A stretch of 64,000 nt of DNA, from NCBI GenBank assembly GCA_018698675.1, contig JABIPA010000063.1:20851-84850 (forward strand), written 5' to 3'. The translations under genes were made by a program, and so were the position numbers. Under the pieces are notes generated by a model. The model saw only the letters and a list, made by a program, of their open reading frames with translations. It was not told where the DNA came from and did no database searches. Shown in pieces: positions 34,801-64,000 of this stretch. Within the stretch, counting starts at the first letter, position 1, and each line of letters starts with the position of its first letter. Source of the DNA: a bacterium. GTDB lineage: Bacteria > Margulisbacteria > Marinamargulisbacteria > JABIPA01.

Positions 34801-36249
34801 ACTCCTTCAAATGAAGACGACTTTAGGTTTGTAGCCGTTACCGATGAAGATGGTGATTATTCCATTAATATTCCTCAAGTTGGTGAATATACAATTACGA
34901 TTGATTCAGAAGGCTTTGTTGAAGAAGTAAGAAATGAATGGTTTGATAGCCATAACGGTAATTCAAAAGAAATTGATTTTGATATGAAGGTTCCTGGAGA
35001 TACAGGAAGTATGTATGTTCAGTCCTTTAAAGTTGGATTTTTAGGTACTAAAGAAGTGGGTGATACTGCTGATGAAGGTGTTTATGTGTCAGCTACCATT
35101 GAAGAATGGAATGGGTCCAATAATGTTGCCTTTGACGGAGAAGAAGGAGTAAGGGTTGTTTTAGTTGACGCTGAAAACCCTGAAACGGAACTTATTGAAC
35201 TTACTCATTCGGGATTTGGAGTTTGGTCTGCAGGTACTATGGTTGTTGAAGGGCGAACTGTGATTGAAACGTCTGTATTCGACGGTGTTGAAGATATGCA
35301 ACTAGTTATTCAATCTGAGACATCTACAAGTGCGGGTGATTTCACACATATAATTTTCCCAAATCAGGGAGATACATGGCAACTTTCTCAATCAGAGAGA
35401 GAAGTTCCATCTGTAGGTAGTTATGTATATCTTGATGAATTGGATTTAGATATTGTTAAAAACCAAAATGGCATTGCACGACTTAAGGTTAGTTTTCAAA
35501 ATTTCTGGTTGAACCAAGGGATTGATGGACTTTATGAAATTAGATTCACTTTGGATTCAAATACAAGCGGCACTCCAGATTTTCATGTTCAAGAATGGGT
35601 TAACGCTGATTCGAACTCTGGTTCGATTTATGAATTAAGTGTTGAACCGTGGATGTGGGCAGGTAATGATAGCTTGGAAAACATATATCCAAACGGACTT
35701 CCAGCGGGAGATTGGAAAGTCGAAGTAACCTTGTCTAAAGATAGTTCTGTGAAAGTAACGACTTATGATTCAATTGTGGTTGATGATGTAATGCCTTGGT
35801 ATGAGGAATATGATGGAAATACAACAATTGATGACTTTGGAGCGGTTCCTCATGAAGCGACTGACCCAGATGATGAAGTATCTCCACAAGTTTTTCTTTT
35901 TCCGGCAGATTTTCCAATGGATGAAGATGGGAATCCAAGTCAGTTATCAGAAGATTTAGCGAACTATACGACTCTATTGGGAAGATTAGAGGTTGAATCT
36001 AAAGAAGCTTTATCTGTTCCAGAGGCTATGGAAGCAAGAGATGCTGAGTCTAAAGAAGTGTTAACTGAAATTTATCCGGTTCAATCGGATGATAGTCCAA
36101 CGTTAGTAATGTTAATGTTGCCAAACGATTTTGATGGAGAGATGGACTCCGATACAATTGGAGAAGCAGTAAACGGAACCCATGTAATGATTGATTTAGG
36201 TGGCGGCATCGTTACTTTCCATGTTCTTGATAATTCGAGCATAGATTAA
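31804..36249 (+). CDS. large acidic surface lipoprotein with repeated carboxypeptidase-regulatory-like (CarboxypepD_reg/Ig-like) domains
   Basis: Lipobox LIVSLTGC and an AAGGGAGA SD. At least 5 copies of the pattern G.V.....pgA.V........T...G.F.......g.Y...v...G, for example TGTDGNFSVYG, TNANGEYVYSGL, EQHGEFTLVFP, TDSEGNFEIENVP and TDEDGDYSINIPQ. Confidence 0.75.
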   Translation: MFKIFKSWRWLSVALSIGLIVSLTGCAKLQEALNQVITDYESSQGTEVVETTVDVEITGSVTAQNSEGLTAPVNQASVVVSYDNGNYENFGYTGTDGNFSVYGESLENVDEIQVSVSKSGYESGSSTVLRVGDDYDGDDTRIRIGNTTLSRDSGTALGGTIYGTVEFRFKGVPGAIVSINDSSGANVSEVKTNANGEYVYSGLTLGTSSAPSVYSLTVSKKDDSGTELFVQTTQSVSLSTPSYIDVKQNFVLEPTGDFADDFENTDYGIVYAQLVPSDEGNDNHDDGQGNSSSDKNEFELPSFVVEAKATLIEFKGKDSDGYATIPVSEQPETLIDRHTGQIIFPNVQEGEYVMRVQFGVEGAALDSTETVYDSYEYVVHTFPMENLTVLPDPELVYITKDQFGEISEAFDHIDSNNIWIENEVRINAGGWDSPASYSKLSFEKDGITFETFANKDGWFGLDLPESGDYVFKVYLKNENGSLEANPSIEESVYIQGPDNSQNSDGNYYNSWEWWSQNGHDWIVMIYKDLDSGDLASVPMGKIQGNLRLSGQDYNDLYSESIELEIYFVNDNSVSYTVTTSTGEFSVDVAMLNGGYRIKVLNSDSVTVANEWDEYWPQDQYSGGYNNSMDVWLRTQGLTLESKIYAKVGNDDIGVGGATVTLSKVEDGVKTFVADTVTYDGNKAEQHGEFTLVFPEDEGDFELVISGDDIKTKTLIAWIENDPNSGDDYNWHSYDSNLKGYTTWNGIKVKATSYLGSYFPVVKGKVGTDEVNMDNVKNAQVTISFVGTDLSASGTTDSEGNFEIENVPAFDGEMNLTVTKGSDTGKTDWTFRYDWNDVNAIKTDPLNFDDDVYVPWGNTSETLWVQYDGFELNEMFVEMNFNNNSYGVEGAILIVSDENDEEVSVSRDSKEDGRIQGVYIPKDGTYEASIMMAGFVTQTFDNQQLSKQDWDNHGWTAGQRFTLKVDDISNEELVSILPNVEVYGKVEFDGISLPGVEVVFTPSNEDDFRFVAVTDEDGDYSINIPQVGEYTITIDSEGFVEEVRNEWFDSHNGNSKEIDFDMKVPGDTGSMYVQSFKVGFLGTKEVGDTADEGVYVSATIEEWNGSNNVAFDGEEGVRVVLVDAENPETELIELTHSGFGVWSAGTMVVEGRTVIETSVFDGVEDMQLVIQSETSTSAGDFTHIIFPNQGDTWQLSQSEREVPSVGSYVYLDELDLDIVKNQNGIARLKVSFQNFWLNQGIDGLYEIRFTLDSNTSGTPDFHVQEWVNADSNSGSIYELSVEPWMWAGNDSLENIYPNGLPAGDWKVEVTLSKDSSVKVTTYDSIVVDDVMPWYEEYDGNTTIDDFGAVPHEATDPDDEVSPQVFLFPADFPMDEDGNPSQLSEDLANYTTLLGRLEVESKEALSVPEAMEARDAESKEVLTEIYPVQSDDSPTLVMLMLPNDFDGEMDSDTIGEAVNGTHVMIDLGGGIVTFHVLDNSSID

Positions 36250-48075: not shown

Positions 48076-48242
48076 GTTGATTATTGTAAATGATTTGGGA
48101 TGTGGCGTCTAAATGGAAAGTTGATAATTTTTAAATAAATCGATGAATTTCAAATTGTTTTGTTTGAGAAGACCTTAATATGCTTAAGTATATATAAATC
48201 TTTCTGGTATTTCATTAGTATCACAAAGTAAACTTGGAATAT

Positions 48243-50816
48243 ATGTCTCAAATAAAAATGAATCTGGTGTGCATAATTGCTTTTTTGTTTTTAGGTTTTC
48301 ACCCTCTGCAATCGGCGTCGAGTCGATATGTTCCGAATGAGTTAATTATTGGATTGGACCTGCCAATCGAATCAAGTCAACACTCTGAATTTTCGAAAAA
48401 TTCTGTTAATCGAGTTGATTTTAATTCTGATCAACCTAAAGGAATGGTTTCTACTTATGTACAGTTAAAATCAGTTGATGAGCTTGAATCACTCCTTAAT
48501 CTATTACCATCTACGGACAAGCTTTCTATTCGGTCAAAATCATCGAGTCTGAAATTTTGGAATCGAATTGATCAGTTGAATTTGAATTCGGGAAATAAAA
48601 ACGGGCGGAATTTATCGTCTGATGAAACAAATATACCCTCACAATTGGTCGTAAAATTTTCTGATACTACGCCGATATTAGATCTCATTTCGAAATTTGA
48701 GAGGACGTCTGGAATTAAATTTGTTCAACCAAACTTTATCTATAGTATTTGGCCTGAAGGGGTCAAAGATACCGTTTTAGATAAAATTAACGAACACGAC
48801 GGAAACGAACCTACATTTCAAGTCAATCATTCTGGCACAATATATGGACCAAACTCTTTTCAATTTGCATCTCTTTCTGACGCCGTAAATGATCCATTTG
48901 TAGACAGACTATGGAATTTGGAAATTATGAGTTCAGAGGAAGTATGGGATTTAACAATAGGAAGTTCGTCAACGGTTATAGCCGTTGTAGATACGGGTGT
49001 GGATTTAGGACATCCTGATTTAAACGATAATATTTGGACAAATGAGAATGAAATTCCTAACAACGGTGTCGACGACGATAACAATGGATTCGTAGATGAT
49101 GTATTTGGATGGGACTTCATTTCTTCAACTCAATCGAATAACCCTTCGGACCAGAATGGGCACGGAACCCATGTCGCAGGAGACGCGTCGGCCGTCGCTA
49201 ATAATGCGGTGGGAATAGCGAGTATTGGATATTCTTGTAAAATAATGGCTATAAGGGCAGGAGACGAAGACGGCAATTTCACGTCTGCATCGATTTCGGA
49301 TTCTGTAGACTACGCTGTTGCTAATGGAGCAGATGTAATTAATTTAAGTATTGGCGGGCAGTCCGAAGCATCAGAAATAGTTTTACAGACGTCGATCGCG
49401 AACGCAATTGCTGCAGGAATTCCTGTAGTAGCAGCTGCTGGTAATGCAGACCCAAGAAGGAATATTGATACAAATAATATTATTCCTGCTAGTTATCCAA
49501 ACGTGATTACGGTTGGGGCTTTAACCGAAGAATTAGATAAGTCTGTAAGCTATGCTTTTTACAGTAATTATGGACCGTCTCTGGATATTATGGCAGCGGG
49601 AACGAATGTTTATTCTACGTACTACAGCACCTTGTTTAAAAGCATTTATGTTTATGATAGTGGGACGTCTATGGCGAGTCCTCAGGTGGCAGGAGTTGTT
49701 GGGCTTATGAAGTCGGTATACCCTCAATTGACGACTGAGCAAGTTACAAACGCATTGACGTCTACTGCGCGAGATTTAGGAGTTAGTGGGAGGGATGACG
49801 ACTATGGCTATGGATTGGTTCAATCTGCGTCAGCGTTGTTAAGCTTAGACTCGAAAAAGGCAACGGCTACGTATTTGCAATCGTTAACAGTTGATGTTTC
49901 TGCTTCGTTTACGGTATCAATAAATGTAACGGATGACTTATTTTCTACCGTTGTACCAACCGTAAATATTGTTTATCAATTTGAGCCTAATTCAGATTCT
50001 TCAAGTTGGATGACAAAAGGGATGAATCGTTCTGGGGACCAATTTTTTACAAGTTTAGATTCTGCGTCTAGTCCGGGAACATTTAACTATTATTTTGAGG
50101 TAAATGATTTAAATAGAAGTAACGATTTTGAATATCCTGAAGAGGGAGCAACAAACCCTTTATCTGCAATAGTAAAAGATATCTCACCGCCGATAATTTC
50201 AAGTGCTTATATCAATAATGATTATTTTGCTAAAAATGGCATTTTTAAAGAGACCATAACCGATAATACATCTGTTGATTCGTCTAGCATTTCATTAGCA
50301 ATATTAGCGGACGGCTTTTCTGAAAGTTTTGATGTTTCTGATGAAGGCGTTACGTTTGAAGATTCTGTTTTTAGTGTTGATTTATCGACGGTTGATTTTT
50401 CGTCTAGTTCGTCATTTACATTTTTAACATCGGTTTCGGATATTAACGGACTAAGTTCGTCATCAGAAGTTGTCTTAAAAACAGAAGAAACATCCGGATT
50501 TAACATATTTGGACCGAACGACGAATCGGAACCAATAGTGAATTCTCCAAATCCATTTAATCCTGAAAATGAGGTAACTAATATCTCATTTCAATTAAAT
50601 CAAAATGCGGATATTTTGATTAATATCTATTCGATTTCTTATGAAAAAGTATTCGACTATTCGTCTTATCATTTCGCTGGATATCATCAGGTGGAATGGG
50701 ATGGACGAAACACTAACGGGAGCAGACTTCCTATGGGTGCGTATCTTATATTTTTGAGAGGGGAATCGAATGGGGAAGTAATTGTTCGTAAAACAAAAGC
50801 GATGATTATTTATTAA
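48243..50816 (+). CDS. secreted subtilisin-like (S8) serine protease with C-terminal FlgD-Ig/T9SS-like sorting domain
   Basis: Catalytic triad blocks VAVVDTGVDLGHPDL, HGTHVAG and SGTSMASPQVAG. Signal peptide present. The last ~90 aa, NSPNPFNPENEVTNISFQL...VEWDGRNTNGSRLPMGAYLIFL, resemble a FlgD-Ig/Por-type CTD. The start could be TTG 48234, ATG 48243 or ATG 48258. Confidence 0.88.
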   Translation: MSQIKMNLVCIIAFLFLGFHPLQSASSRYVPNELIIGLDLPIESSQHSEFSKNSVNRVDFNSDQPKGMVSTYVQLKSVDELESLLNLLPSTDKLSIRSKSSSLKFWNRIDQLNLNSGNKNGRNLSSDETNIPSQLVVKFSDTTPILDLISKFERTSGIKFVQPNFIYSIWPEGVKDTVLDKINEHDGNEPTFQVNHSGTIYGPNSFQFASLSDAVNDPFVDRLWNLEIMSSEEVWDLTIGSSSTVIAVVDTGVDLGHPDLNDNIWTNENEIPNNGVDDDNNGFVDDVFGWDFISSTQSNNPSDQNGHGTHVAGDASAVANNAVGIASIGYSCKIMAIRAGDEDGNFTSASISDSVDYAVANGADVINLSIGGQSEASEIVLQTSIANAIAAGIPVVAAAGNADPRRNIDTNNIIPASYPNVITVGALTEELDKSVSYAFYSNYGPSLDIMAAGTNVYSTYYSTLFKSIYVYDSGTSMASPQVAGVVGLMKSVYPQLTTEQVTNALTSTARDLGVSGRDDDYGYGLVQSASALLSLDSKKATATYLQSLTVDVSASFTVSINVTDDLFSTVVPTVNIVYQFEPNSDSSSWMTKGMNRSGDQFFTSLDSASSPGTFNYYFEVNDLNRSNDFEYPEEGATNPLSAIVKDISPPIISSAYINNDYFAKNGIFKETITDNTSVDSSSISLAILADGFSESFDVSDEGVTFEDSVFSVDLSTVDFSSSSSFTFLTSVSDINGLSSSSEVVLKTEETSGFNIFGPNDESEPIVNSPNPFNPENEVTNISFQLNQNADILINIYSISYEKVFDYSSYHFAGYHQVEWDGRNTNGSRLPMGAYLIFLRGESNGEVIVRKTKAMIIY

Positions 50817-50820
50817 CTAG

Positions 50821-52920
50821 CTATAAAATACTAGCTGGATTAAAATCCACAATCGTTCGCACGTATTGAATCCGTGGAAGATCTCTCAAATAAGCATGAA
50901 TGTCATCAAATTTGTCCGGTGGGCACTTAATTAAAAAGTGCCATCGGATATGTTTGTTGATGAGTTCAACAGGGGCAGGTGAGGGCCCTAAAACTTGAGC
51001 CCCAAATTTTTCATTTATTTTTTTAACAAATGGAGAAATATCATTAATATAAGTCGTTAAAGTTCGTTGAGACACGCAAGATATTAATATATTAATAAGT
51101 TTAGAATACGGTGGGTATTTTAGTAACTTCCGATAATTAACTTCCTTTTTATAGAATGATTTAAAGTCATGTGTTTTCGCCATATCAAACACGTAGTGTT
51201 CGGGCTGAGATGTTTGTATAATTACATTTCCTTGCTCTTTGTCACGACCAGCGCGGCCTGCAACTTGTAGCATAAGTTGGAATGTTCGTTCGGTGGACCT
51301 AAAATCTGGAATATTTAATTGATTGTCGATAGCTAAAATCCCAACCAAATTTACATTTTCGATATGATGACCTTTGGCAATCATCTGTGTTCCTATAAGT
51401 ATATCGCCTTTTGTACGGAACTCATCGAGGATAGATTCAATTTTCTTGCCAGTGCTCCCCGTATCTTTATCTAATCGTAAAATATTGGCGTTAGGAAAGA
51501 GTCGACGACAATCATATTCTATTTTTTGGATACCTGTTCCTGAAAATTTAAGTGTATTTTTTTTGCAGGCTGAACATTGGTGGGTAATAGGTGTTATTTT
51601 GAAACACCGGTGGCAGCGAAACGATTTATCTTTGTGATAAGTGTAACTCAAATTACAATTTGGACAGCAGTGAACTTGGCCACACTTTTGGCAATCTATG
51701 TAAGGAGCGAATCCTCTTCGGTTCACCAATATCATCGTTTTTTGACCCTTGTCCAACGTGGTTTTCATTGCATCGAGTAGTGGCAATGAAAAAAGTCTGT
51801 TTTGCATTTCTTGTTTCTTGATATCTACAAGATTCATGTTAGGAAGCGGTGTTTTGTGAACACGTTCAAGAATTTCGAAATGGGTCGAATCAACCCCTTT
51901 AAAATAGGATTCTAATTTTGGTGTTGCGGAACCTTTAATCAACAAGGCGTTAGTCTTCTTTGCGCGATATCTAGCGACATCTATTACTCGGTATCTTGGT
52001 GACGATTCTTGATTGTAAGCGCCATCATGCTCTTCATCAATTACAATTAGGCCTAAGTTTTTAACGGGAGAAAATATTGCAGACCGTGGTCCTAAAACAA
52101 GGCTGGTTGCGTCTTCGTTCATAGTATTCCATGCCATATCTTTTTGTTTTGGTGTTAGCCCAGAATGCAAAAGGTGAACCTTATCTCCAAATCGTTCGAT
52201 GAAATTTTTAGATAGTTGAGGTGTTAATGCGATTTCAGGTACAAGAATTATAACGGACTGTTTATTATCTAAAGCACGTTTTGCAAGATTTAGGTAAACT
52301 TCTGTTTTTCCACTTCCCGTTATTCCATGAATTAAGCGTTCGGTATATGTTTTAAAGGTTAGACAGTCATCGATTATTTTTTTTTGAGGAGGGGTAAGCG
52401 TTGGCCATTTATTAGTATTATCAGACAAGTCTTTTGAAGGAGAGTCTGATTTAACAGAGGTATCAATGTCTAAGGTTTGATCGAGAGTCAACTCCGTTCC
52501 TTTAGCCTTCAATGCAGCTTTAGTTGCTTTTTGTTTCTTTAAAGTTGCTTTTCTCTCTTTTTCTTCCTTTTTAGCGATTTCTAGTTTGATATCTCTATAT
52601 TTTCGAGCACCTATAACCGCTTGATACCCTTTGTGTAATGTTACATGGTGATAGTCTGACATCCAAAATATGCAGGAAATTAAGTCAGCAGGAATCACTG
52701 GTTTTTTCTCGTCAATTTCAGCGATAGGCTTTAATTTGAGGTTAGGGGTAGTTCCCGATTCAGCTTCTTGTTTTTCAATATCTACAATTAAACCGGAAAC
52801 AGAACTTCTTCCAAACGGTATAGTGACATGGGTTCCAATTTGAATAGATTCTAATTCAGGAGGAATTGTATAGGTATATGTTTGAGGTACCCCTCTAAAA
52901 ACAAGGACTGTTGCTAGCAT
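50821..52920 (-). CDS. priA: primosomal protein N' (replication restart helicase PriA)
   Basis: Walker A GITGSGKTEVY, a DEEHD box, Cys-rich zinc fingers CQKCGQVHCCPNCNLSYTYHKDKSFRCHRC...CSAC, and QVAGRAGR. Confidence 0.92.
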   Translation of the reverse strand: MLATVLVFRGVPQTYTYTIPPELESIQIGTHVTIPFGRSSVSGLIVDIEKQEAESGTTPNLKLKPIAEIDEKKPVIPADLISCIFWMSDYHHVTLHKGYQAVIGARKYRDIKLEIAKKEEKERKATLKKQKATKAALKAKGTELTLDQTLDIDTSVKSDSPSKDLSDNTNKWPTLTPPQKKIIDDCLTFKTYTERLIHGITGSGKTEVYLNLAKRALDNKQSVIILVPEIALTPQLSKNFIERFGDKVHLLHSGLTPKQKDMAWNTMNEDATSLVLGPRSAIFSPVKNLGLIVIDEEHDGAYNQESSPRYRVIDVARYRAKKTNALLIKGSATPKLESYFKGVDSTHFEILERVHKTPLPNMNLVDIKKQEMQNRLFSLPLLDAMKTTLDKGQKTMILVNRRGFAPYIDCQKCGQVHCCPNCNLSYTYHKDKSFRCHRCFKITPITHQCSACKKNTLKFSGTGIQKIEYDCRRLFPNANILRLDKDTGSTGKKIESILDEFRTKGDILIGTQMIAKGHHIENVNLVGILAIDNQLNIPDFRSTERTFQLMLQVAGRAGRDKEQGNVIIQTSQPEHYVFDMAKTHDFKSFYKKEVNYRKLLKYPPYSKLINILISCVSQRTLTTYINDISPFVKKINEKFGAQVLGPSPAPVELINKHIRWHFLIKCPPDKFDDIHAYLRDLPRIQYVRTIVDFNPASIL

Positions 52921-53017: not shown

Positions 53018-54070
53018 CTATATAGCTTTATAAATTAAGTCTAAGTAAGAACATGACCCAAGAAGAGCGGCATGATCAGGATCTGGAGCTTGATAAATCT
53101 TTACATCGATACCCATTTCATAAATTTGAGAGCGAGCAGAGCTAAGAATCGTTTTCCCCAAACGACCTTTGCAGCCAATGCTTCCACCTAATATATACGT
53201 GTTAAACTCAGATACTATATGTGTATCCTCTTCGGACCATCCTTTTTTCGATGTCATTCCCGATTGAATCAGATAAATAAGTTCTGCGATATAACGGCCG
53301 ACGGACTCAATAATTTCTTTAGACTTATTCCAAGCGACAACGTCGGTGTTTAGTTCTTTCGCTTGAAACCCGGTTAGTCTGATGATTCCTCTGTGAGACA
53401 AAATATTTTCTACGGGTTCATTTGGAAACGATGGGATTTCTAAATCAAATATATGTCCATCAGTATAAAACATAGGATATTGATTTTCTGACATATCTAA
53501 AAATGCTCCTCCTAGACCAGTTCCTATCCCTATAAATCCGTAATGAAACGTTTCTTCCAAAGCTAATTTTCTATCTAATAACATAATGTACGAGCCTAAA
53601 CATTGAGCGAGTGCATCGTTTTGAATAAAGAATAATTTTTCAGGTGATAACTTCATGAGTTCTTCTTTTGGAGAAAATAAATCAAATTCTCCATCGAACG
53701 TCCCTAGGTTTTCTGCTGAACCAGGTTTTAGTCGTCCTTTGTCATCAAAATTTCCAGGCATGGATATGGAAACCATATTTGAGGAGACAAGACATTTTTC
53801 GTCTATATCAAGGTCTAATGCGCTGTTTAACGTTTGAAGTTTATTTTTAAAGGATGATGTTCCAACCGTGCGATCAATTTCATTTATTATGTCTAATAAT
53901 TGATTGCAAAGTACTTTTTTTCCTTTTTTTGTTGAATAAGATTTTTTAAATAGGCAAAGAGGGTAGCTCTGTGTTTTAGACGATAAAAAATAGGCAGCAT
54001 GAATTGATGTTCCTCCGACATCTAAACAAATATAAGTTGGAAAAAGATAAGAAGGATCTTTAATGGACAC
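53018..54070 (-). CDS. ROK/ASKHA-type sugar kinase-like protein
   Basis: ICLDVGGTSIHAAYF (phosphate-1 loop), GIGTGLGGAF, ILGGSIGCKG and AALLGSCSY. The start overlaps the upstream dehydrogenase-like gene by 11 nt. Confidence 0.5.
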   Translation of the reverse strand: MSIKDPSYLFPTYICLDVGGTSIHAAYFLSSKTQSYPLCLFKKSYSTKKGKKVLCNQLLDIINEIDRTVGTSSFKNKLQTLNSALDLDIDEKCLVSSNMVSISMPGNFDDKGRLKPGSAENLGTFDGEFDLFSPKEELMKLSPEKLFFIQNDALAQCLGSYIMLLDRKLALEETFHYGFIGIGTGLGGAFLDMSENQYPMFYTDGHIFDLEIPSFPNEPVENILSHRGIIRLTGFQAKELNTDVVAWNKSKEIIESVGRYIAELIYLIQSGMTSKKGWSEEDTHIVSEFNTYILGGSIGCKGRLGKTILSSARSQIYEMGIDVKIYQAPDPDHAALLGSCSYLDLIYKAI

Positions 54071-55130: not shown

Positions 55131-55280
55131 TGTGAATCTAATGCAAGTGTATGCATTTTTTTGTGATTTTTCAATATAAAATAGGTAGATCAACTAGTGA
55201 AGCTAGAACTCTAGGTTCATTTGAATAAATGGACAATATAAGATATTTAAAACATTTGATGGAAATTATTATATATACGT

Positions 55281-58200
55281 TTACAATTTCATTATGTATG
55301 CGATCGTATAATACGAGGGCCTGTTGTCAAACGAGGTACCACTTCCAGTGGAGTTTGTTGTAAATGTGTGAGAGTGTGATCCACCATTTTCTGTGGCATG
55401 GTGATTACCCCATGTACCACTATCTGATCCAAAAGAAGGTCCTCCATTGATGGCAGTGACATTGTAGTCATCTTGTTGAGTATTTATATTATGAGCATGA
55501 GATCCTCCGGTAACTGTTGTTCCTGTATGCGTATGAGAAGGTATATTTGCTGTTGTTAGGGTTCTATTGTCTGATCCCCCTGAATCACCAATCGCATTGT
55601 AGTCAGCATTCGCTGAATTATAACCAACGACAAATTTTCCTCTTAAATCAGGGGTGCCAGCATCACCGTCACAAAGTTCCCATCCAGCAGGAATGGCCCC
55701 TATTGATCCACTCCACATAATAATTGCGCCCGCTGGTACAACAGATATTCCGTTGGATAATACAAAGTCGGTTGCCTTAACATCGCCTACAACCTCAAGT
55801 TTTTCTGATGGAGCTGACGTGCCCATACCAATAAGTCCAGTTCCTCGAATGACCATGGATGTATCAACTGTATTATCGGAGCCTACATTTGTAAAAGCGA
55901 TGAGTCCGTCAGGATTAGTTTGATTCCAATCTGTTTTTTCAAACACCAACGCATCGAAGTTGGATGCCCCAAGAAAGTCACGATCGTGATAGATACGGAA
56001 ACTGTCGAGGACTGGGGTAACTCCTGCTGCAGATGGTTCAGCACGGATAGCATCATTTAAAATTCCAGAACCATCGGTGATTATTTCTGAGGCAGTGATG
56101 TTACCAGAAACATCAAGATTACCTTCCGGGGTAAGTCTCATGCGTTCAGTTAAAGTAGCACCACCTTGGCTATAAAAAACAAGATGTTCTAGGCCATCGT
56201 CACCATACCCAATGACGGCTTCACCCGTATTACTTGTGCCACCATCAATATCGTTAACACCGAGAAATAAATTGTCGGTATCATTTCTAATAAAAATACC
56301 ACTCATACCAATAAAAGGTGCGTTATTACCACCACCATCACCAATTTCTAAGTCAAGAAAGTTTGTATTAGACGGAGATCCTAACGCCAATTTATTCGAA
56401 TGAATATTTCCCCATAAGTTAGCAGTTGTTCCTAAAGACCCTTGGCCAGAAGTATCAGGATAGAGAGCATAAGTTTCTGCATCAGCGGCGTATTCAGCAT
56501 GCATGCTTCCGTAACTATTAAATCCAATTGTTGTTCGAGCACTGGTACCAGTCCCCATAGCCGAGCGAACGACAAAGTCGTTGTAGCCGTCTTCGTCTTT
56601 AATAACGAGGGGCCAAGTAACTAAACTGTCATCATTGTCGTAGCCAGAAATGGAAAGTTTTATTCCTTGGGCATTTACCCCTTGATCTACATTACCCGTA
56701 ATTGACATTTGATAATTAGCGTAATCATTAGTTACATGATTATCGATAATATCAACAGCTCCATCATCCCAAACTTTAACCAAGTCAGTGTATGTTTCAG
56801 TATCAAATTGATTTGTATTGCTTCTAAAGTAGAAGAGAGCATTGGAAGGGGTAATATCATAGCCATTAAAAACCATGCTAGAACTTGATACGAGATGGAC
56901 GGGATTATTGTGATTTGTATCTCCAGTACGACCAATTTTAAAGGCGCCAGTATCATTGATATCATTAATTTGAAAAGGAGCAGGGGCACCGGCTGTTGTG
57001 TTCGCACTAATTTGAATAGATTCGGTATAAATTTTACTCCAGTTGTTAGCAGACGTACCTAATGATCCTTTACCAGTAGCGTCTGGGTAAAGAGCATAAG
57101 TATCTTCTGTAGAATCGAATTCAAAAAGAGCATGACCTTTAGCGCTAAACCCGAATCTAAATTGGCCACCGTCGGTGGAGTTTGAGGCACTTCTAAACCA
57201 GAAATCGTCGTTAGAATCTTCGTCTCTTAGCAAAAGAGGGTAGGTATAATCAGTGTCATCGTTATCGTAGTTTGTAATAGAAAGTTTGTATCCTTCAGCA
57301 TTTACACCAGAATCTGTAGGGCCCCAAAATGCTACTTGAGAATCGACACCTGAGTTTCCACCAGCACCGTTAATCATTAATGTATCGGCAATAAGACCTC
57401 CAAAACCACTGGCCGTGATATTACCAGAAATTTCAAGGTTACCATCAGAAGTAAGTCTCATACGTTCGGTGAGAGTTGTTAGGTTTTGGCTATAAAAAAC
57501 AAGGTGCTCCTCTCCATTATCACCAAATCCAATAACTGCTTCTGCTGCATCACCAGCTCCACCGTCGATATCGTTAACGCCGATAAAAAGGTTATCGGAA
57601 TTATTTCTAATAAAAAGACCTCTCATTCCAATATAGGGAGCATTAACACCAATTCCATCGCCAATTTCAAGGTCAAGGAAGTCCTTGCTTTGTGGCGAGT
57701 TAAATGGGACTCCTAACTGTAATTTATTGGCATGTATATTTCCCCATAAATTTGCAGAAGTTCCTAAAGATCCTTCTCCAGTTGTATCTGGGTAAAGAGC
57801 ATAAGTATCAACGACAGAGTCGTATTCAAAAAGAGCGCTGCCTTTCGAACTAAACCCGAATTTGAATTGACCGCCACTTGGGCCATGAGAACCTGAGCGA
57901 AACTGGAAATCAACGTTTCCGTCTTCATCTACAAGTTTAAGAGGGTATGTGTAGTTCGTATCATCGTTGTCATAACCCGAAATTAGGAGTTTAGTTCCAT
58001 CGGCATTTGTACCGGTATCATTTGTACCAGCTAACTCTAATTGAGTGCCTGATTGAGGACCAGGGGAAGGTAAAAGAACTTTACCGTCGTTATAAATTTG
58101 CATGAGATCCGTGTTTGTGAAGACATCGAATTTAGTGACGCTAGCACGATAATAAAAGACTGGAGCAGAAGCAGCTGCCGTATAAGCATTTAAAACCATT

Positions 58201-61200
58201 TCTCTGTTGGTTACGAGGTGATGGGGACCATTTCCACCAATTTTGAAAGCAGATAAATCATCGGCATCATTAATTTGAAAAGGAATAAGAGACACATCAG
58301 CATTTGCGCTGACGTAAATAGCATCAGAAACATGGAGCCCCGTCGCATTAATAGAAACGATTTCAGAGCCAGAGATATCAAAACGGATAATGTCTTCGTC
58401 AGCAGATTCTTCGACATGAACTTTAGTGTCGGCGTCTGCATCTGAAATAAGGGCTGTGTCGATACTAAGGTTAGTAAGAGCAGATCCGTCTCCACTAAAA
58501 GAAGCAGCTGTTACAGAACCGGATGATAAAATGTTCCCAGCAACGTGAAGTGGCTGAGTTGGGTTTGTTGTGCCTATTCCGACATTTCCGGTACCTCGAA
58601 TAACCATGGATGTATTGACGGTATTGTCATTGGCAACATTTGTAAACGCGATGCCTCCATCAACATATGAATGATTAAAGTCTGTTTTTTCAAAAACTAG
58701 GCCGTCAAGATTACTTCCAAAAAAGTTGCCGTCTTGGTACATACGGAATCCGTCTGTAGCAGGATCCTCTCCCGGTGCTGATGATTCATTACGCAAAATA
58801 TCGACTGAGTTAACATATATACCGCTATTAAACGTTGCTGACGTATTAACGGATATCCCACCTGCAGCAACTATGTTTCCAGAAACATCAAGGTTGCCGG
58901 ATTCATCTAAACGCATGGTCTCAGTTAATGTAGCCTGATTTTGATTATAAAAAACAAGGCTTTCATCGCCGTCATCACCATAGGAGATAAGCGTTTCGTG
59001 ATAGCCGTTGTCAGACGAAACGTCTTGCATCCCAAAAAAAGCGCCGTCACTAGAGTTAGAGATAAGAATACCATCCATGGAATTGAACGGGTTGTCGTAA
59101 GATGCCCCATTACCTACTTCTAAAAGAGAACCGGGAATCGTATTCCCAATACCAACTCGATTGGTGGAAGCATCAACAAACAGAGTATTTGTATCAACAG
59201 TTAAGTCCGCACCAAAAATACCGTTTGAAGAGGCGTTTATAGATCCAACGACGTCAAGTTTTTCAGAAGGAGTGGTGGTACCGATGCCAAAGTCTCCAGC
59301 GGTCGAAAGCCGAGCTTTTTCTGCACCATTTATGGCAAGTGTTAAGGGTATACTTCCCGCCGCATTAATTCGGAATCCGTCCGATACTCCCATAGGTCCA
59401 ATGTGTGAAACATTTCCTGCGCGATTAAATCCTATTTGAGAAGTGTCTCCAGTCCCAGCTACATATAATTCGATTTGGTTAGCAGGTGACGATGTTCCGA
59501 TTCCAAAGCCAGTTGCTGTCAACACGGCCGTTTCAACTGATTCAATATCGAAACGAATAATATTTTCGTCTGACGTTTCCTCGACGTGAATTTTGGTATT
59601 CCCATCGTCATCGGAAACAAAATTAATAGTAGGAATACTATCCAAATTTAGATTAGTAATAAGAGATCCGTCACCTGAAAAAGCATTTGCAGTAACTGTG
59701 CCAGAAAAATTAGCAGTAACAGCAGAGAGACCAGCGGAAAGCACAGAATGGGTACCAGTTAAGAAGCTAGAAAAAGAACCAGATGTTCCGGAGATAGCTC
59801 CAGAAAAAGAACCTGAAGTAGCCGTTAGAGATCCATCAGCGACGATGTTTCCAGAAACAAGAGAATGGCTAGATGAATGAATGCTTCCAACAACATCGAG
59901 GTTATAAAGAGGGGTTGTCGTCCCTATACCAAGTGAGTTGGAAGAGACATCAACAAAAAGGGAGTTATCACCAACAAGTAAATTCCCTTCTTTGGAAAGA
60001 ATCATACGGAGCTCAGTATTTGTATAAAAACGCATGTCTCTATCTTCAGCTAGATAAAGATTAAAGTAATTGGTACCAAATCCAATAAAGGAAGAATCGT
60101 TACCACGAGAAAAGGTCAATTTAGACCAAGTAGATTGGTCTGGAACATAAAGGTCAAGTAAAGAGGTAGGGGTTGTTGTACCAATACCAAGCCCGGTGGA
60201 AGTAAGCGTGGCAGATTCCGTATTATCAATATTGAATCTAATAATATCTTCGTTAGCAAATTCTTCCGTATGAATACTCGTTGTACCATCAGAATCGCTA
60301 ATGATGTTTACAGTAGGAATAGAGGTAGCTGTAACGTTTGTTAAGCCGGAGCCATCACCCAAGAATGCAGCGGCTGTAATATTGCTAGAAACATCAAGAT
60401 TCCCATCTCCATCAAGAATCATACGAGACGTTAATGTGCTACTTGTTTGATTATAAAAAACAAGGTTTGCGTTTGAGCTGTCACCGTACCCAATAAGCGC
60501 TTGAGCTGTACTTCCTCCCGGAAGTTCTTTCATTCCTAGAAATAAATTGTCAGTATTTTCTCGAATAAAGATACCTCTCATAGAGGTGTAAGGAGAGTTT
60601 GTTCCAGAACCGTCACCAATTTCTAAGTCCAGAAAGTTTGTGTTAGAAGGTGTTCCTAATGCCAATTTATTGGCATGAATATTACCCCAAAGGTTTGTTG
60701 TTGTACCTAAAGATCCTTGGCCGGTCGCGTCAGGGTATAATGAGTATGTATTTGAAGCTGCTGTATAGTCAAAAAGAGCGCTACCTTTCGAGCTAAAACC
60801 AAATGTAAATTGACCACCGTTGGGACCTAAAGAAGCCGATCTGTACTGGAAATCAACGCCACCGTCTTCGTTCATAAGTTTAAGCGGATACGTGTAGTTT
60901 GTATCGTCATTGTCGTAGTTTCTAATTAGAAGTTTAGTTCCTTCTGCATTAGTGCCTGTATCAATGGAACCGCCCAATTCTAGTTGAATACCTGCTTGAG
61001 GACCAGGAGAAGGGAGAAGGACTCGCCCATCATTAAAAATTTGAAAAATATCGTCATAAGATGTTGAGTCGAATTTAGTTGGATTAGACCTGAAATAAAA
61101 AATAGGAACAGATGATTGAGCCGTATATGAATTAAAAATTGTAGATGTGTTTGAAACAATGTGGGTAGGAGCATTTCCATTAGAATGTCCAAATTTAATT

Positions 61201-64000
61201 GCAGACGCGTCATCGACAGAATTGATTTGAAAAGGAGCAGACGTATTTGATAGTTCTGATGTAATGAAAATACCACCAGAAACATTTAAGCTTTCGTCTG
61301 TGAGAGTAGCACGTTCATCCCCAGCAATATCGAAACGGATAATATCGTCATCTGTAGATTCTTCGACAAGGATTTTAGTATCATTGTCCGCGTCAGAAAT
61401 AATATTGATACTAGGAATAACAGAAGCGTCGAGGACACCAGAGGTAATATTAGAAGCATTCAAGTCAGTAAGGTAAAGACCATCACCATGAAAGGCGTTA
61501 GCCGTAACGGTTCCTGTAAAATCACCAGTGACCGCGTTAAAGAGCCCACCAACGCTAGCATTACCAGAAAAAGCACCAGTAAGAGCATTAACATCTTGGC
61601 CAAAAATAGATTTCCAACGTTTATCATTTTTACCTAATGAACCAGCTGTGGATGTGGAAGGGTAAAAAACGTAATTGGAAGCGGAATCGTCATAATCCAT
61701 GAGAGCAGAGCCACGAGATCCAAAGCCGAATGTGAATTGACCGCCATCGGTAGAGTTAGATGCGGACCTGAATTGGAAATCAACATTGTTATCTTCGTCT
61801 TTAAGTTTAATAGGATATGTATAGTTCGTATCGTCATTGTCATAGTTGGCAATTAAAAGTTTGGTACCAGCCATATTCGAACCAGCATCGGTAGCCCCAA
61901 ATAATGATAAATGTTCACCGTTTTCGGGACCTTGACCGTTAAGAACGACTTCACCATTTTTATAAATAGACACCAGGCTATTGTAATTGTCCGTATCATA
62001 TTTAGTTGGACCTGCTCTGAATTGAAAAACAGGTGTGGATTCAGAGGCAGAATATCCATGGAAAAGAAGGTCTCTATTTGAAACAAGGTAGTGTGGATCG
62101 TTGTCTGTCGAGTCGCCAAAACGAATGGAAGAGTCGTCATCAGCAGAATTGATTTGAAGAGGAGCTAAGGATCCATTGGAATTAGATTTAACAAAAATAC
62201 TGTCGGCGACGTTGAGACCTGTGGAATTAATAGAAACAGATTCGGAGCCATCGGCAATGAAACGAATAATATCTTCATCGACCGATTGTTCAACAAAAAT
62301 AGACGTGTCGTTATCATCATCCGCAATAGAATTAAGACTAGGAATAAGAGCGGAGTTAATGACACCGAGAGTAAGGTTGGAGGCATTAAGGTCAGTTAAA
62401 TAAGATCCGTTTCCATAGAAAGAGTTAGCGGTAACGTCTGACGAAAAATTAGCAGTAGCGGCAGTTAATCCGGATGCAACGTTAATCTCTGTTGTATATG
62501 TTTTTTTCCAATAGTAGGAAGCCGTTCCAAGCGTACCATCGTTATTGGCACTAGGGTAAAGAGAATAGGTATCTTCAGTGGCATCATATTCAGCAAGAAG
62601 GCTTCCTTGGTCTACAAATCCAAAAAGAAATTGACCACCGTTTAATCCACCGTCTGAAGCAGACCGATAATAAAAGTTAGTTTTATTGTTTTCATCAACC
62701 ATTTTGAGAGGGTAAGTGTAATTTGTATCGTCATTATCATAACTAGAAATTAAAAGTTTAGTTCCAGAGGCATTAACACCGGTGTTTACGGTACCAGCAA
62801 GTTCTAGTTGAGTTCCAGCTGGGGTCCCAGGAGCAGATAAGAGGACTTTACCATCATTATAAATTTGAAATAGATTTGTGTAAGAGCCATTATCAAATTT
62901 AGTGGAGTTGTCACGAAAATTAAAAATGGGAGACGAGACGCCCAAAGTATATGCGTTAAAGACCATGTCTCTATTAGATACGATATGATGAGGATTAATT
63001 CCGGTTGAATCACCAATTTTAAGGGCAGAAGAATCGTCAGCAGAATTGATTTGCAAAGCGGGAGCAGAAGAAACAGAGTTAATAAAAACAGAGTCATCAA
63101 CATGGAGTCCTGTCGCGTTTATAGACACGCGTTCAGAACCTGAGGTATTAAAGCGAATAATATCCTCGTCCGTTGAGTTTTCGACAAGAATAGTTGTGTC
63201 ATTATCAGCATCAGAAAGAGAGTTAATGCTAGGTATGAGACTAGGGTCAAGAAGACCGGACGATATGTTGTCAGCACTTAGGTCGGTAAGGTAGAGCCCA
63301 TTTCCATGAAAAGCATTGGCGGTAATATCGCTAGAAAAGTTAGCGGTAACAGCAGATAGTCCAGCAGAAAGAACTTCATGAGTACCGGATAATATTTGAG
63401 TGAAGGTACCTGATGTAGCTGAAAGAGCATCTGTGAAGGTTGCAGTTGTACCCGAAACAGCTCCTGAAAAATTACCAGCAACCCCAGAGATATCACTCGT
63501 GAATGTACCAGTCGAACCAGAAACAGCGCCAGAAAAGGACCCAGAAGCAGCCGATAATGATCCGTCGGAAACAATATTTCCAGAAACATATGAATGGCTA
63601 GACGAGTGAATGGTACCAATGACATCTATATTATGTTCGGGAGATGTTGTACCAACTCCAATTTTGTCTTGGTCGAGGTTGACATAAAAAGAGTTGGAGC
63701 CGATGTAAAAATTTCCGTTCTTTGACAGGGTCATTTGGTTAACGCCATCGGTATAAAATCGAAGGTGTTTATCTTCGGCAACGTTTAGTTTAAAGGCATC
63801 AGACGTGTCATACCCTATGAATGAGGATGTACCACCTCTGTTAAAGGTGAGTATTGAGTCTGTCGAGTCATCAGGAACATAAAGTTCAAGTTGAGACGAA
63901 GGAGCGGAGGTGCCGATACCAAGCCCAGTAGATGTAAGTGTCACTTTTTCGGAACCATCAATATTGAAGCGAATAATATCTTCATCGGTCGATTGCTCAA
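55281..64000 (-). CDS. giant mosaic-repeat tail-fibre-like protein with C-terminal phage tail-collar domain (5' end outside the window)
   Basis: The open frame continues upstream of the track's GTG (63944) to the window edge. It translates as EQSTDEDIIRFNIDGSEKVTLTS, another copy of the internal repeat, so the protein exceeds 2,906 aa. The C-terminus carries PAGAIIMWSGSIGAIPAGWELCDGDAGTPDLRGKFVVG ... FDNRPSYYTIAYIMKL, a tail-collar/MdpB-type domain. Confidence 0.88.
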   Translation of the reverse strand, partial: EQSTDEDIIRFNIDGSEKVTLTSTGLGIGTSAPSSQLELYVPDDSTDSILTFNRGGTSSFIGYDTSDAFKLNVAEDKHLRFYTDGVNQMTLSKNGNFYIGSNSFYVNLDQDKIGVGTTSPEHNIDVIGTIHSSSHSYVSGNIVSDGSLSAASGSFSGAVSGSTGTFTSDISGVAGNFSGAVSGTTATFTDALSATSGTFTQILSGTHEVLSAGLSAVTANFSSDITANAFHGNGLYLTDLSADNISSGLLDPSLIPSINSLSDADNDTTILVENSTDEDIIRFNTSGSERVSINATGLHVDDSVFINSVSSAPALQINSADDSSALKIGDSTGINPHHIVSNRDMVFNAYTLGVSSPIFNFRDNSTKFDNGSYTNLFQIYNDGKVLLSAPGTPAGTQLELAGTVNTGVNASGTKLLISSYDNDDTNYTYPLKMVDENNKTNFYYRSASDGGLNGGQFLFGFVDQGSLLAEYDATEDTYSLYPSANNDGTLGTASYYWKKTYTTEINVASGLTAATANFSSDVTANSFYGNGSYLTDLNASNLTLGVINSALIPSLNSIADDDNDTSIFVEQSVDEDIIRFIADGSESVSINSTGLNVADSIFVKSNSNGSLAPLQINSADDDSSIRFGDSTDNDPHYLVSNRDLLFHGYSASESTPVFQFRAGPTKYDTDNYNSLVSIYKNGEVVLNGQGPENGEHLSLFGATDAGSNMAGTKLLIANYDNDDTNYTYPIKLKDEDNNVDFQFRSASNSTDGGQFTFGFGSRGSALMDYDDSASNYVFYPSTSTAGSLGKNDKRWKSIFGQDVNALTGAFSGNASVGGLFNAVTGDFTGTVTANAFHGDGLYLTDLNASNITSGVLDASVIPSINIISDADNDTKILVEESTDDDIIRFDIAGDERATLTDESLNVSGGIFITSELSNTSAPFQINSVDDASAIKFGHSNGNAPTHIVSNTSTIFNSYTAQSSVPIFYFRSNPTKFDSTSYDDIFQIFNDGRVLLPSPGPQAGIQLELGGSIDTGTNAEGTKLLIRNYDNDDTNYTYPLKLMNEDGGVDFQYRSASLGPNGGQFTFGFSSKGSALFDYTAASNTYSLYPDATGQGSLGTTTNLWGNIHANKLALGTPSNTNFLDLEIGDGSGTNSPYTSMRGIFIRENTDNLFLGMKELPGGSTAQALIGYGDSSNANLVFYNQTSSTLTSRMILDGDGNLDVSSNITAAAFLGDGSGLTNVTATSIPTVNIISDSDGTTSIHTEEFANEDIIRFNIDNTESATLTSTGLGIGTTTPTSLLDLYVPDQSTWSKLTFSRGNDSSFIGFGTNYFNLYLAEDRDMRFYTNTELRMILSKEGNLLVGDNSLFVDVSSNSLGIGTTTPLYNLDVVGSIHSSSHSLVSGNIVADGSLTATSGSFSGAISGTSGSFSSFLTGTHSVLSAGLSAVTANFSGTVTANAFSGDGSLITNLNLDSIPTINFVSDDDGNTKIHVEETSDENIIRFDIESVETAVLTATGFGIGTSSPANQIELYVAGTGDTSQIGFNRAGNVSHIGPMGVSDGFRINAAGSIPLTLAINGAEKARLSTAGDFGIGTTTPSEKLDVVGSINASSNGIFGADLTVDTNTLFVDASTNRVGIGNTIPGSLLEVGNGASYDNPFNSMDGILISNSSDGAFFGMQDVSSDNGYHETLISYGDDGDESLVFYNQNQATLTETMRLDESGNLDVSGNIVAAGGISVNTSATFNSGIYVNSVDILRNESSAPGEDPATDGFRMYQDGNFFGSNLDGLVFEKTDFNHSYVDGGIAFTNVANDNTVNTSMVIRGTGNVGIGTTNPTQPLHVAGNILSSGSVTAASFSGDGSALTNLSIDTALISDADADTKVHVEESADEDIIRFDISGSEIVSINATGLHVSDAIYVSANADVSLIPFQINDADDLSAFKIGGNGPHHLVTNREMVLNAYTAAASAPVFYYRASVTKFDVFTNTDLMQIYNDGKVLLPSPGPQSGTQLELAGTNDTGTNADGTKLLISGYDNDDTNYTYPLKLVDEDGNVDFQFRSGSHGPSGGQFKFGFSSKGSALFEYDSVVDTYALYPDTTGEGSLGTSANLWGNIHANKLQLGVPFNSPQSKDFLDLEIGDGIGVNAPYIGMRGLFIRNNSDNLFIGVNDIDGGAGDAAEAVIGFGDNGEEHLVFYSQNLTTLTERMRLTSDGNLEISGNITASGFGGLIADTLMINGAGGNSGVDSQVAFWGPTDSGVNAEGYKLSITNYDNDDTDYTYPLLLRDEDSNDDFWFRSASNSTDGGQFRFGFSAKGHALFEFDSTEDTYALYPDATGKGSLGTSANNWSKIYTESIQISANTTAGAPAPFQINDINDTGAFKIGRTGDTNHNNPVHLVSSSSMVFNGYDITPSNALFYFRSNTNQFDTETYTDLVKVWDDGAVDIIDNHVTNDYANYQMSITGNVDQGVNAQGIKLSISGYDNDDSLVTWPLVIKDEDGYNDFVVRSAMGTGTSARTTIGFNSYGSMHAEYAADAETYALYPDTSGQGSLGTTANLWGNIHSNKLALGSPSNTNFLDLEIGDGGGNNAPFIGMSGIFIRNDTDNLFLGVNDIDGGTSNTGEAVIGYGDDGLEHLVFYSQGGATLTERMRLTPEGNLDVSGNITASEIITDGSGILNDAIRAEPSAAGVTPVLDSFRIYHDRDFLGASNFDALVFEKTDWNQTNPDGLIAFTNVGSDNTVDTSMVIRGTGLIGMGTSAPSEKLEVVGDVKATDFVLSNGISVVPAGAIIMWSGSIGAIPAGWELCDGDAGTPDLRGKFVVGYNSANADYNAIGDSGGSDNRTLTTANIPSHTHTGTTVTGGSHAHNINTQQDDYNVTAINGGPSFGSDSGTWGNHHATENGGSHSHTFTTNSTGSGTSFDNRPSYYTIAYIMKL
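60234..63164 (-). repeat. three tandem ~300-366-aa coding repeat modules inside the giant tail-fibre-like gene
   Basis: D(I/N)IIRF anchors at 63150-63164, 62259-62273, 61332-61346 and 60234-60248, spaced 891, 927 and 1098 nt apart. Each unit also carries FQINSADD..., YDNDDTNYTYP(L/I)K and GGQF.FGF blocks. Confidence 0.75.

Follow-up and report, generated by a model that had tools for sequence, protein, structure and literature searches.

Genomic locus and reading frame of the fibre gene

The 64,000-nucleotide stretch of DNA analysed here (hereafter, the window) belongs to contig JABIPA010000063.1 of GenBank assembly GCA_018698675.1, from a metagenome-only marine bacterium of the Marinamargulisbacteria, and it ends in a giant gene on the minus strand that encodes a fibre-like protein: a long shaft of repeated modules, capped by a C-terminal tip of the phage tail-collar type and followed on its 3′ side by housekeeping genes. 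The frame of this gene is open over 2,905 sense codons (window 55281–63998), up to the window edge, and closes with a single stop, TAA, at 55281–55283. At a GC content of 40%, the probability that 2,905 codons are stop-free by chance is approximately 1e-82. A first-pass annotation, made by a model from the letters of the sequence, had described a frame open from 55281 to the last base; the open frame is as described there, and the literal coordinates are 2 nt out of frame. Glycine, serine, threonine, aspartate and asparagine account for 49.5% of the residues, in agreement with the composition noted in that annotation. The net charge of the visible protein is −227, and it contains one cysteine.

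In the list of open reading frames (ORFs), the nominal start of the fibre is a GTG at 63944, which lies within a repeat unit. The residues ahead of this GTG are EQSTDEDIIRFNIDGSEK, and they form part of a unit whose further copies lie at aa 277, 574, 883, 1249, 1477 and 1867 (amino acids, aa, are numbered from the first one visible); every internal copy of the unit has a junction motif before it. The 25 N-terminal visible residues (EQSTDEDIIRFNIDGSEKVTLTSTGLGIGT) align to the internal units at aa 1249 and aa 1477. Because the nominal GTG sits inside a recurring unit whose internal copies stand behind junction motifs, the repeat alignments place the true start outside the window, past base 64000, and the earlier statement that the N-terminus is out of view holds.

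To what extent the locus is represented elsewhere can be seen from other public assemblies. The nearest genome is that of “bacterium isolate SI072_bin15” (GCA_018699495.1), with identities of 95% for transketolase and 92% for PriA; for the next relatives, these values are about 52% and at most 46%, respectively. Proteins of the window recur exactly in marine assemblies of the Joint Genome Institute (JGI) and ENA. The window and an independent ENA scaffold (L001) share 100% identity across 7,113 bp, of which 3.7 kb belong to the fibre gene, and an independently called fragment of 1,058 aa (P0054) is near-identical to the fibre. On the basis of this scaffold, this fragment and the open frame, we conclude that the fibre ORF is real, i.e., that the gene has an intact frame encoding at least 2,905 aa.

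An assembly artefact or a decaying pseudogene, in which a chimeric collapse of repeats had produced an unexpressed gene, is hardly credible. In its favour, the other public assemblies of the population and of the sister genome all break inside or beside the fibre gene (L001, L003–L005): the JGI contig (262 kb) stops at approximately window 61558 and L001 at position 59027, and the contigs of the sister genome stop at the gene for the dehydrogenase or for PriA. In addition, the C-terminal 20 aa of P0054, ending in ERSEERRVGKECRSRWSPYH, are unrelated to the window sequence and resemble a chimeric assembly end. Against it, the frame runs uninterrupted over 8.7 kb, the L001 scaffold is identical over its 3.7 kb of the gene, the motifs are kept across diverged copies, and a collapse is unlikely because the repeats are only 60–76% identical in DNA. 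For the same reason, we do not attribute the assembly breaks to exact DNA repeats; the position of the breaks at the fibre locus suggests strain-level heterogeneity or low coverage.

Module architecture of the shaft

Tile-wise self-BLAST and motif maps indicated that the fibre is a mosaic of diverged internal paralogous modules that share 30–65% amino-acid identity (Table 1). Since the copies are only 60–76% identical at the DNA level, the duplications are old, and the conservation of the motifs reflects selection, not recent amplification. Most of the length is made up of super-repeats of about 300 aa, each consisting of a junction unit followed by three elements, which we call X, Y and Z. 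The six junction units have the form F.G(D/N)G..LT(D/N)(L/V), usually with an acidic DxDxxT loop, and then (D/E)(E/D)(D/N)IIRF; the loop gave five regular-expression matches among the six units, with a variant in unit 6. Elements X, Y and Z together constitute the B module, of which there are six copies of about 200 aa with 47–64% identity (alignment A1). The consensus sequences are PFQIN.ADD...HH.VSNR...FYFR...TKFD for element X, NTG.NA.GTKLLIS.YDNDDTNYTYP...DED...DF.FRS for element Y and Y.LYP.....SLGT....W..I for element Z, and copy 5 is without element X.

Three further types of module are interspersed with these super-repeats. The N-type modules (aa 1–232, 1243–1445 and 1471–1605) are 35–47% identical to one another and carry GIGT..P...L.V.G units; there are also four C units (LVFY(N/S)Q...T.RM.L...GNLDVSGNI) and two D units (VFEKTD...IAFTNV..DNTV.TSMVIRGTG..G.GT). 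The GIGTT-type motifs that the first-pass annotation had reported are present, at nine in the whole fibre, and are thus sparser than the “many” claimed there. The description of these motifs as typical of Bacteroidota proved too narrow, given that they are widespread.

Table 1. Coordinates of the fibre gene and of its modules in the window
Feature	Position	Strand	Residues (aa)	Remarks
Giant fibre ORF	55281..64000	(-)		2,905 codons in view plus stop; 5′ end cut by window edge
N-type module 1	63303..63998	(-)	1-232	Starts within DEDIIRF unit cut by window edge; 47% identical to aa 1245-1500
Junction unit 1	63099..63356	(-)	215-300	Motif map
B module copy 1	62469..63101	(-)	300-510	Self-BLAST and alignment
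Junction unit 2	62199..62465	(-)	512-600	Motif map
B module copy 2	61569..62204	(-)	599-810	Self-BLAST and alignment
Junction unit 3	61275..61541	(-)	820-908	Motif map
B module copy 3	60663..61277	(-)	908-1112	Self-BLAST and alignment
C1 module	60354..60716	(-)	1095-1215	Self-BLAST and motif map
Junction unit 4	60189..60401	(-)	1200-1270	Pfam Chlorovirus glycoprotein repeat matches, below threshold
N-type modules 3 and 2	59184..60272	(-)	1243-1605	GIGT-type beta-helix-like repeats; junction unit 5 in between
C-like and D1 modules	58494..59201	(-)	1600-1835	GIGNT and GIGTT motifs
Junction unit 6	58323..58535	(-)	1822-1892	FSGDGSALTNL ... DADADTKV ... DEDIIRF
B module copy 4	57714..58325	(-)	1892-2095	Self-BLAST and alignment
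C2 module	57384..57767	(-)	2078-2205	Self-BLAST and motif map
B module copy 6	56388..57020	(-)	2327-2537	Elements X (QIN...), Y (YDNDD) and Z (SLG....W)
C3 and D2 modules	55758..56441	(-)	2520-2747	LVFYSQ...ERMRL unit, VFEKTD unit, last GMGTS motif; 47% identical to paralogous aa 1600-1835
C-terminal tip	55284..55757	(-)	2748-2905	Phage tail-collar / T4 Gp10_C-type receptor-binding domain (by homology); GW.LCDG..GTPDLRGKF
Three HxH motifs in tip	55368..55535	(-)	2822 (HTH), 2834 (HAH), 2875 (HSH)	Candidate axial metal-binding sites

The C-terminal tip

The tip matched PHROG 1800, “tail collar fiber protein,” with an E value of 2.6e-25 (aa 2748–2905) and PHROG 8469 with an E value of 3e-15. The first-pass annotation had read the C-terminus as a tail-collar domain and had pointed to Pfam Collar (PF07484) as the family to search for. 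The collar-type assignment was borne out; Collar itself stayed below its cutoff (13.5 vs 24 bits), and the related family Gp10_C (PF21939) passed marginally (27.3 bits; cutoff, 27.0). No match to Peptidase_S74 (PF13884) was found in the fibre with Pfam and PHROGs, so the tip is of the non-S74 type. Among known structures, the tip matched PDB entry 6OV6 (E = 1.2e-16; chain residues 127–274 of 277) and entry 9nxk, a “tail fibers protein” (E = 1.8e-6), each of which was deposited with three chains. The collar motif, IPAGWELCDGDAGTPDLRGKFVVGY, pairs residue for residue with both entries, and the ending of the fibre, YYTIAYIMKL, is the counterpart of YYTLAYII in 6OV6. Two of the three HxH motifs were aligned as well, HSH to HSH of 6OV6 and HTH to HTH of 9nxk. 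In the tips of T4 gp12 and gp37, HxH motifs coordinate Zn or Fe on the trimer axis. The 6OV6 entry is a prophage tail fibre of Bizionia argentinensis, and it superposes on T4 gp10, on T4 gp12 and on the tip of Pvc13, a fibre of an extracellular contractile injection system (eCIS) (PMC10097599). Based on these homologies, we assign the tip to the collar-tip domain family.

In a tblastn search of 50,697 phage genomes, 64 phage records matched the tip or the GIGT region, and these were the only segments of the fibre with phage matches. The matches to the tip fell in genes annotated as tail fibre or tail collar, in phages of hosts that include Vibrio, Synechococcus, Tenacibaculum and Burkholderia, with identities of 30–53% over short stretches only. 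For the super-repeat at aa 821–1215, the same search gave no significant match; the best one, with an E value of 0.05, fell on the junction motif. The first-pass annotation had called the fibre “domesticated,” i.e., of phage origin. Phage relatives exist for the last ~160–270 aa only, and the remainder belongs to a broad pool of mosaic fibres that is both cellular and phage-borne; a phage origin of the whole protein is thus not upheld.

Relatives of the shaft

We searched 5.8 billion clustered proteins with the whole protein and found no close relative of the whole fibre, the best match having 28% identity over 7% of the query. The 13 matches obtained were giant GNVGIGT-repeat proteins with 23–40% identity over 3–27% of the query; NCBI names two of them “tail fiber domain-containing,” and five carry Peptidase_S74. 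Metagenome, genome and viral collections contained no locus related to the whole protein, and there was no match for the fibre in NCBIfam.

The B module was analysed separately. Its profile had no match in a word-indexed protein database, and an exhaustive hidden Markov model search of 1.84 billion representative proteins yielded 137 matches, of which the sole full-length one was P0054, the fragment of the same gene. All the others hit one sub-element each: element X (P0060, P0067 and P0069), element Y (P0056–P0059 and P0061) or element Z (P0055, with 12 copies). Because the matches beyond P0054 are limited to single sub-elements, X and Y are building blocks in their own right, with a wide distribution. 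Each is conserved in dozens of protein clusters, and a Pfam and PDB profile search found neither a Pfam family nor a significant PDB match for either of them. The B-module profile also found nothing in metagenome contigs or in the viral contigs of IMG/VR.

The proteins that carry these elements were inspected for signs of secretion and oligomeric state. A heuristic evaluation of the N-termini found a signal-peptide-like hydrophobic segment in 27 of the 41 Met-starting relatives inspected. A Pfam scan of 36 relatives indicated that 12 end in Peptidase_S74, while 3 contain the Peptidase_G2 intramolecular chaperone (IMC), 2 a collagen triple helix and 2 Collar. Peptidase_S74, Peptidase_G2 IMC and collagen are marks of obligate trimers and, judged by N-termini and domain content, the carriers of these elements look like secreted cellular fibres.

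The GIGT units of the fibre were compared with the mosaic adhesive trimer (MAT) fibres of Bdellovibrio. These are chromosomal, surface-exposed trimeric adhesins of about 1,000 aa with swappable S74 or non-S74 tips, exemplified by Bd2133, Bd1334 and Bd3182 and defined by a conserved, beta-rich N-terminal domain of about 130 aa that follows a signal peptide (PMC10769870); according to the authors, bacteria that are not predatory have MAT fibres, too (Caulton et al., 2024, PMC10769870). With phmmer, the GIGT units matched Bd2133 (8ond) with a whole-chain E value of 8.7e-4 through three short GIGT units. The best stretch (aa 1557–1616) had an independent E value of 6.6e-3, and a weaker stretch (aa 1793–1830) was non-significant.

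Some of these observations bear on whether the fibre is a trimer. A monomeric alternative, in which a large repeat adhesin or S-layer-like protein is secreted, folds as a beta-helix or beta-propeller and has borrowed a collar-type lectin domain, would also account for the acidic composition, with its abundance of Gly, Ser, Thr, Asn and Asp, and for the Ca-loop-like DxDxxT and YDNDD motifs. Element Y has a non-significant similarity to propellers of the BNR_4/sialidase type, with a Pfam E value of 8.6e-4, below the cutoff, and the best PDB match of the B module, a BNR_4-type neuraminidase (5muk), is likewise non-significant (E = 0.07). AlphaFold runs gave no trimer evidence, the models of B module 3 from a six-row alignment and of the tip from a single sequence both being too low in predicted local distance difference test score for use (40 and 31, respectively). 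We nevertheless regard a monomer as improbable, since obligate trimer features (Peptidase_S74, Peptidase_G2 IMC or collagen) accompany X and Y in 17 of the 36 relatives, every solved example of the tip family is trimeric (6OV6 and 9nxk), and Bd2133, which the GIGT units match, is a trimeric fibre.

Two relatives of a different build were also observed. P0078 (L033 10001–13036) and P0091 combine a LamG/pentraxin-like N-terminal domain with element Y and the same collar/HxH tip. P0078 is encoded in a 937-kb chromosomal contig, where the adjoining genes encode an unknown protein of 1,220 aa and a protein with DUF6603, and no recognisable phage gene was present among the Pfam-matched neighbours within 10 kb on each side. 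Proteins of this type may represent a distinct, undescribed system with the same tip.

Genomic context and codon use

Every sizeable ORF of bases 1–55280, i.e., of the 3′ side of the fibre gene, was scanned against Pfam and PHROGs. No phage, integrase, sheath, tube, baseplate, terminase or injection-system gene was detected in this region, in line with the absence of visible phage genes reported in the first-pass annotation. The Pfam-matched genes encode RmuC, RNase J, DapA, RpoD, a bile-acid/Na symporter, Pth, IspD, RpoN, TsaD, ProC, AroQ, AroB, transketolase, a CDGSH protein, Dus, two phosphoribosyltransferases, an LptA/OstA-like protein, an S8 peptidase, PriA and an ELFV-type dehydrogenase, and the other ORFs outside the fibre encode proteins without family matches. 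The dehydrogenase and priA genes named in that annotation were thus confirmed, and its statement that the fibre is embedded among housekeeping genes holds over 55 kb, all on the 3′ side; the 5′ flank is beyond the window. The fibre and dehydrogenase genes are co-directional, with 87 nt between the fibre stop and the dehydrogenase start of the longest ORF (TTG at 55193); the alternative start at 55130, as called in the JGI and ENA assemblies, is 150 nt downstream of the fibre stop.

The GC content of the fibre region is 0.40–0.42, vs 0.33–0.38 in the rest of the window. The excess is located in codon positions 1 and 2 and therefore reflects the amino-acid composition; recent horizontal transfer was rejected as its source on this ground. 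At third codon positions, the GC content of the fibre gene is 0.30, within the range of its neighbours and the host (0.19–0.30), and the synonymous-codon correlation to the housekeeping pool is 0.90, compared with 0.91–0.95 for the housekeeping genes themselves.

These data, together with those on the tip and shaft, bear on the possibility that the protein is the distal tail fibre of a prophage, a tailocin or an eCIS whose structural genes would lie upstream, past 64000, with the fibre as the last gene beside the host dehydrogenase. The 5′ flank, in which such genes would be expected, is outside the window, the GC content is raised at the fibre, and the tip has homologues in phage and prophage fibre tips (6OV6, PHROG 1800 and T4 Gp10_C), resembles the eCIS fibre tip of Pvc13 (PMC10097599) and is matched, with the GIGT region, by the 64 phage records. 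Moreover, one relative (P0003) is a fibre encoded in a phage contig with a P22-type portal. Against this explanation, the extra GC is confined to codon positions 1 and 2 with host-like third positions, the 3′ side contains no integrase, att-like tRNA or phage gene (the sole tRNA of the window is at position 1931), and about 2,000 aa of the shaft, i.e., the X/Y/Z super-repeats, have no counterpart in the 50,697 phage genomes or in IMG/VR. The relatives of X, Y and Z mostly have signal-peptide-like N-termini, which are absent from virion proteins. In Afp and PVC operons, the fibre gene is internal and not terminal, as it would have to be here. Overall, we consider a prophage, tailocin or eCIS fibre to be an unlikely explanation, albeit the likeliest of the alternatives.

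Comparison with known fibre systems

The fibre resembles the MAT fibres in being phage-tail-fibre-like and chromosomal, as far as the visible 3′ side is concerned, in having a long shaft with G.(V/I)GIGT..P...L.V.G units, a widespread motif for which Bd2133 was matched only weakly, and in its mosaic build with a swappable C-terminal tip, here of the non-S74 type. In contrast, its length of at least 2,905 aa is about three times theirs (about 1,000 aa), its X-Y-Z super-repeats are not described in the portion of the MAT paper considered here (PMC10769870), and its collar tip of the T4 gp10/gp12 type lies outside the six solved MAT tips. The N-terminal domain that defines MAT fibres would lie beyond the window in this case, and the host belongs to a marine lineage that is not known to be predatory.

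With the phage collar tips (T4 gp10/gp12, the B. argentinensis prophage fibre C24 [6OV6] and PHROG 1800), the fibre shares homology over the last ~160 aa (E values of 1e-16 to 3e-25), the GW.LCDG..GTPDLRG and HxH motifs, and the C-terminal position of the tip. However, phage shafts comprise a few hundred residues and are encoded beside baseplate genes, whereas this tip sits at the end of a shaft of 2,750 aa or more, with no virion gene within the visible 55 kb. The fibres of eCISs of the PVC/Afp type, such as Pvc13, differ in that no sheath, tube or baseplate gene is in view here, the shaft is unrelated and housekeeping genes follow the fibre gene.

The giant GNVGIGT-repeat proteins include P0002 (3,365 aa), P0013 (3,142 aa; from a metagenome-assembled genome [MAG] of Alphaproteobacteria) and P0007 (from a MAG of Bacteriovoracaceae). 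They are similar to the fibre in size class and in the presence of GIGT repeats, and P0002 and P0013 have in common with it the unit D.D.DT.I..EE..DED.IRFDT.G.E. Their sequence identity to the fibre is confined to the low values and short portions given above, and they differ from it in carrying dozens of GIGT units, compared with the nine of this fibre, where X, Y and Z dominate, and in that 5 of the 13 end in Peptidase_S74.

A chromosomal trimeric surface fibre as the favoured interpretation

The housekeeping genes on the 3′ side, the host-like codon use and the occurrence of the shaft modules in signal-peptide-bearing cellular proteins and their absence from sequenced phages favour a surface fibre over a prophage fibre, as the first-pass annotation had proposed. 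In our judgement, the protein is probably a chromosomal, secreted, homotrimeric mosaic surface fibre, i.e., an adhesin or receptor binder of the class exemplified by the Bdellovibrio MAT fibres.

Such a fibre would begin with a signal peptide and an anchor domain, both past the window edge, by which it would be held at the cell surface, and its three chains would intertwine into a mostly beta-structured shaft. Scaled from Bd3182, which has 922 aa and measures about 550 Å (PMC10769870), the shaft might be about 170 nm long or longer. Its acidic loops, DxDxxT and YDNDD, may bind Ca2+ and thereby stiffen it, and metal ions coordinated by the HxH motifs may lie on the three-fold axis of the tip, in the same way as in the tips of T4 gp12 and gp37. 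The tip of the fibre, possibly together with the B modules acting as lateral knobs, would bind a glycan or protein on the surface of another cell or particle, and both length and specificity could evolve through duplication and shuffling of modules.

Several findings weigh against this interpretation. The N-terminus and the entire 5′ flank, on which secretion, anchoring and the presence of adjacent virion or injection genes depend, are beyond the window edge. Trimerisation is deduced from relatives only, and the AlphaFold models of B module 3 and the tip were of no use in this respect. The nearest characterised relatives of the tip are phage, prophage or eCIS fibres throughout, the match to Bd2133 is weak and confined to a short, widespread repeat, and the codon preference of the fibre is slightly shifted to T-ending codons relative to its neighbours. 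Finally, P0003, a generic GIGT-repeat relative, sits in a phage contig, from which it follows that the GIGT repeat class is common to phages and cells.

Relative to the known kinds of fibre, what is new here, as judged from the protein sequence, is the combination of a length three times that of MAT fibres, X-Y-Z super-repeats without a described family or structure, and a tip of the T4 gp10/gp12 type joined to them. Since giant fibre-like ORFs are common in metagenomes, the finding in itself is not very surprising, but it draws attention to widespread building blocks of fibres that have no description so far and to a possible attachment organelle in this lineage. Chromosomal phage-like fibres have been recognised as adhesins only recently, through the MAT fibres, and the present case suggests that the class extends to this marine lineage and to three times the known MAT size. 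A role in cell–cell attachment, if true, would provide the first functional clue to the lifestyle of this organism; if the upstream region is a prophage, the protein would simply be a very long tail fibre. In a bolder version, which we offer as speculation with little expectation that it holds in full, fibres of about 0.2 µm or longer, bearing six X-Y-Z lateral binding knobs and a phage-derived terminal receptor binder, would be displayed by an uncultured, deep-branching marine bacterium and would act as a multivalent “grappling line” to other cells, as in an epibiont or predator, or to particles, and X and Y would be new, widespread surface-fibre folds without a structural representative.

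Other features of the window

Between the dehydrogenase and priA genes lies a conserved ORF of 350 aa (53018–54070, minus strand), which overlaps the dehydrogenase stop by 11 nt and is also present in the sister MAG. It had been labelled a “ROK-like kinase” in the first-pass annotation; this label could not be confirmed, as there was no Pfam, PHROG or PDB match.

Far from the fibre gene, two tandem giant paralogues of 2,603 and 2,500 aa (7771–15582 and 16178–23680, both on the plus strand) were found. They are 31% identical, rich in Lys, Glu, Leu and Ser, and unrelated to the fibre, and neither had a Pfam or PHROG match. A small ORF between them (15697–16185, plus strand) shares 41% identity with aa 32–152 of the first giant; with the second, it has an 8-nt overlap at the GTG start. 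By this alignment, the second giant copy is present as two ORFs in different frames, through a frameshift, a split gene or translational coupling.

Two further ORFs on the plus strand encode putative exported proteins. The first (31804–36249) is a protein of 1,481 aa with a lipoprotein-like N-terminus (...SLTGC) and CarboxypepD_reg domains, and it is predicted to be an envelope or surface protein. The second (48234–50816) is a subtilase (Peptidase_S8) whose C-terminal domain resembles FlgD_ig at a sub-threshold score; this domain may serve in sorting or secretion and could hint at the secretion machinery of the organism.

The priA gene (50821–52920, minus strand) encodes a protein of about 650–700 aa, as in most of its approximately 20 nearest relatives (P0191–P0211). 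The PF18319 zinc ribbon, which is listed for more distant PriA proteins, is absent in all but one of these nearest relatives, a pattern that is consistent with a coherent clade.

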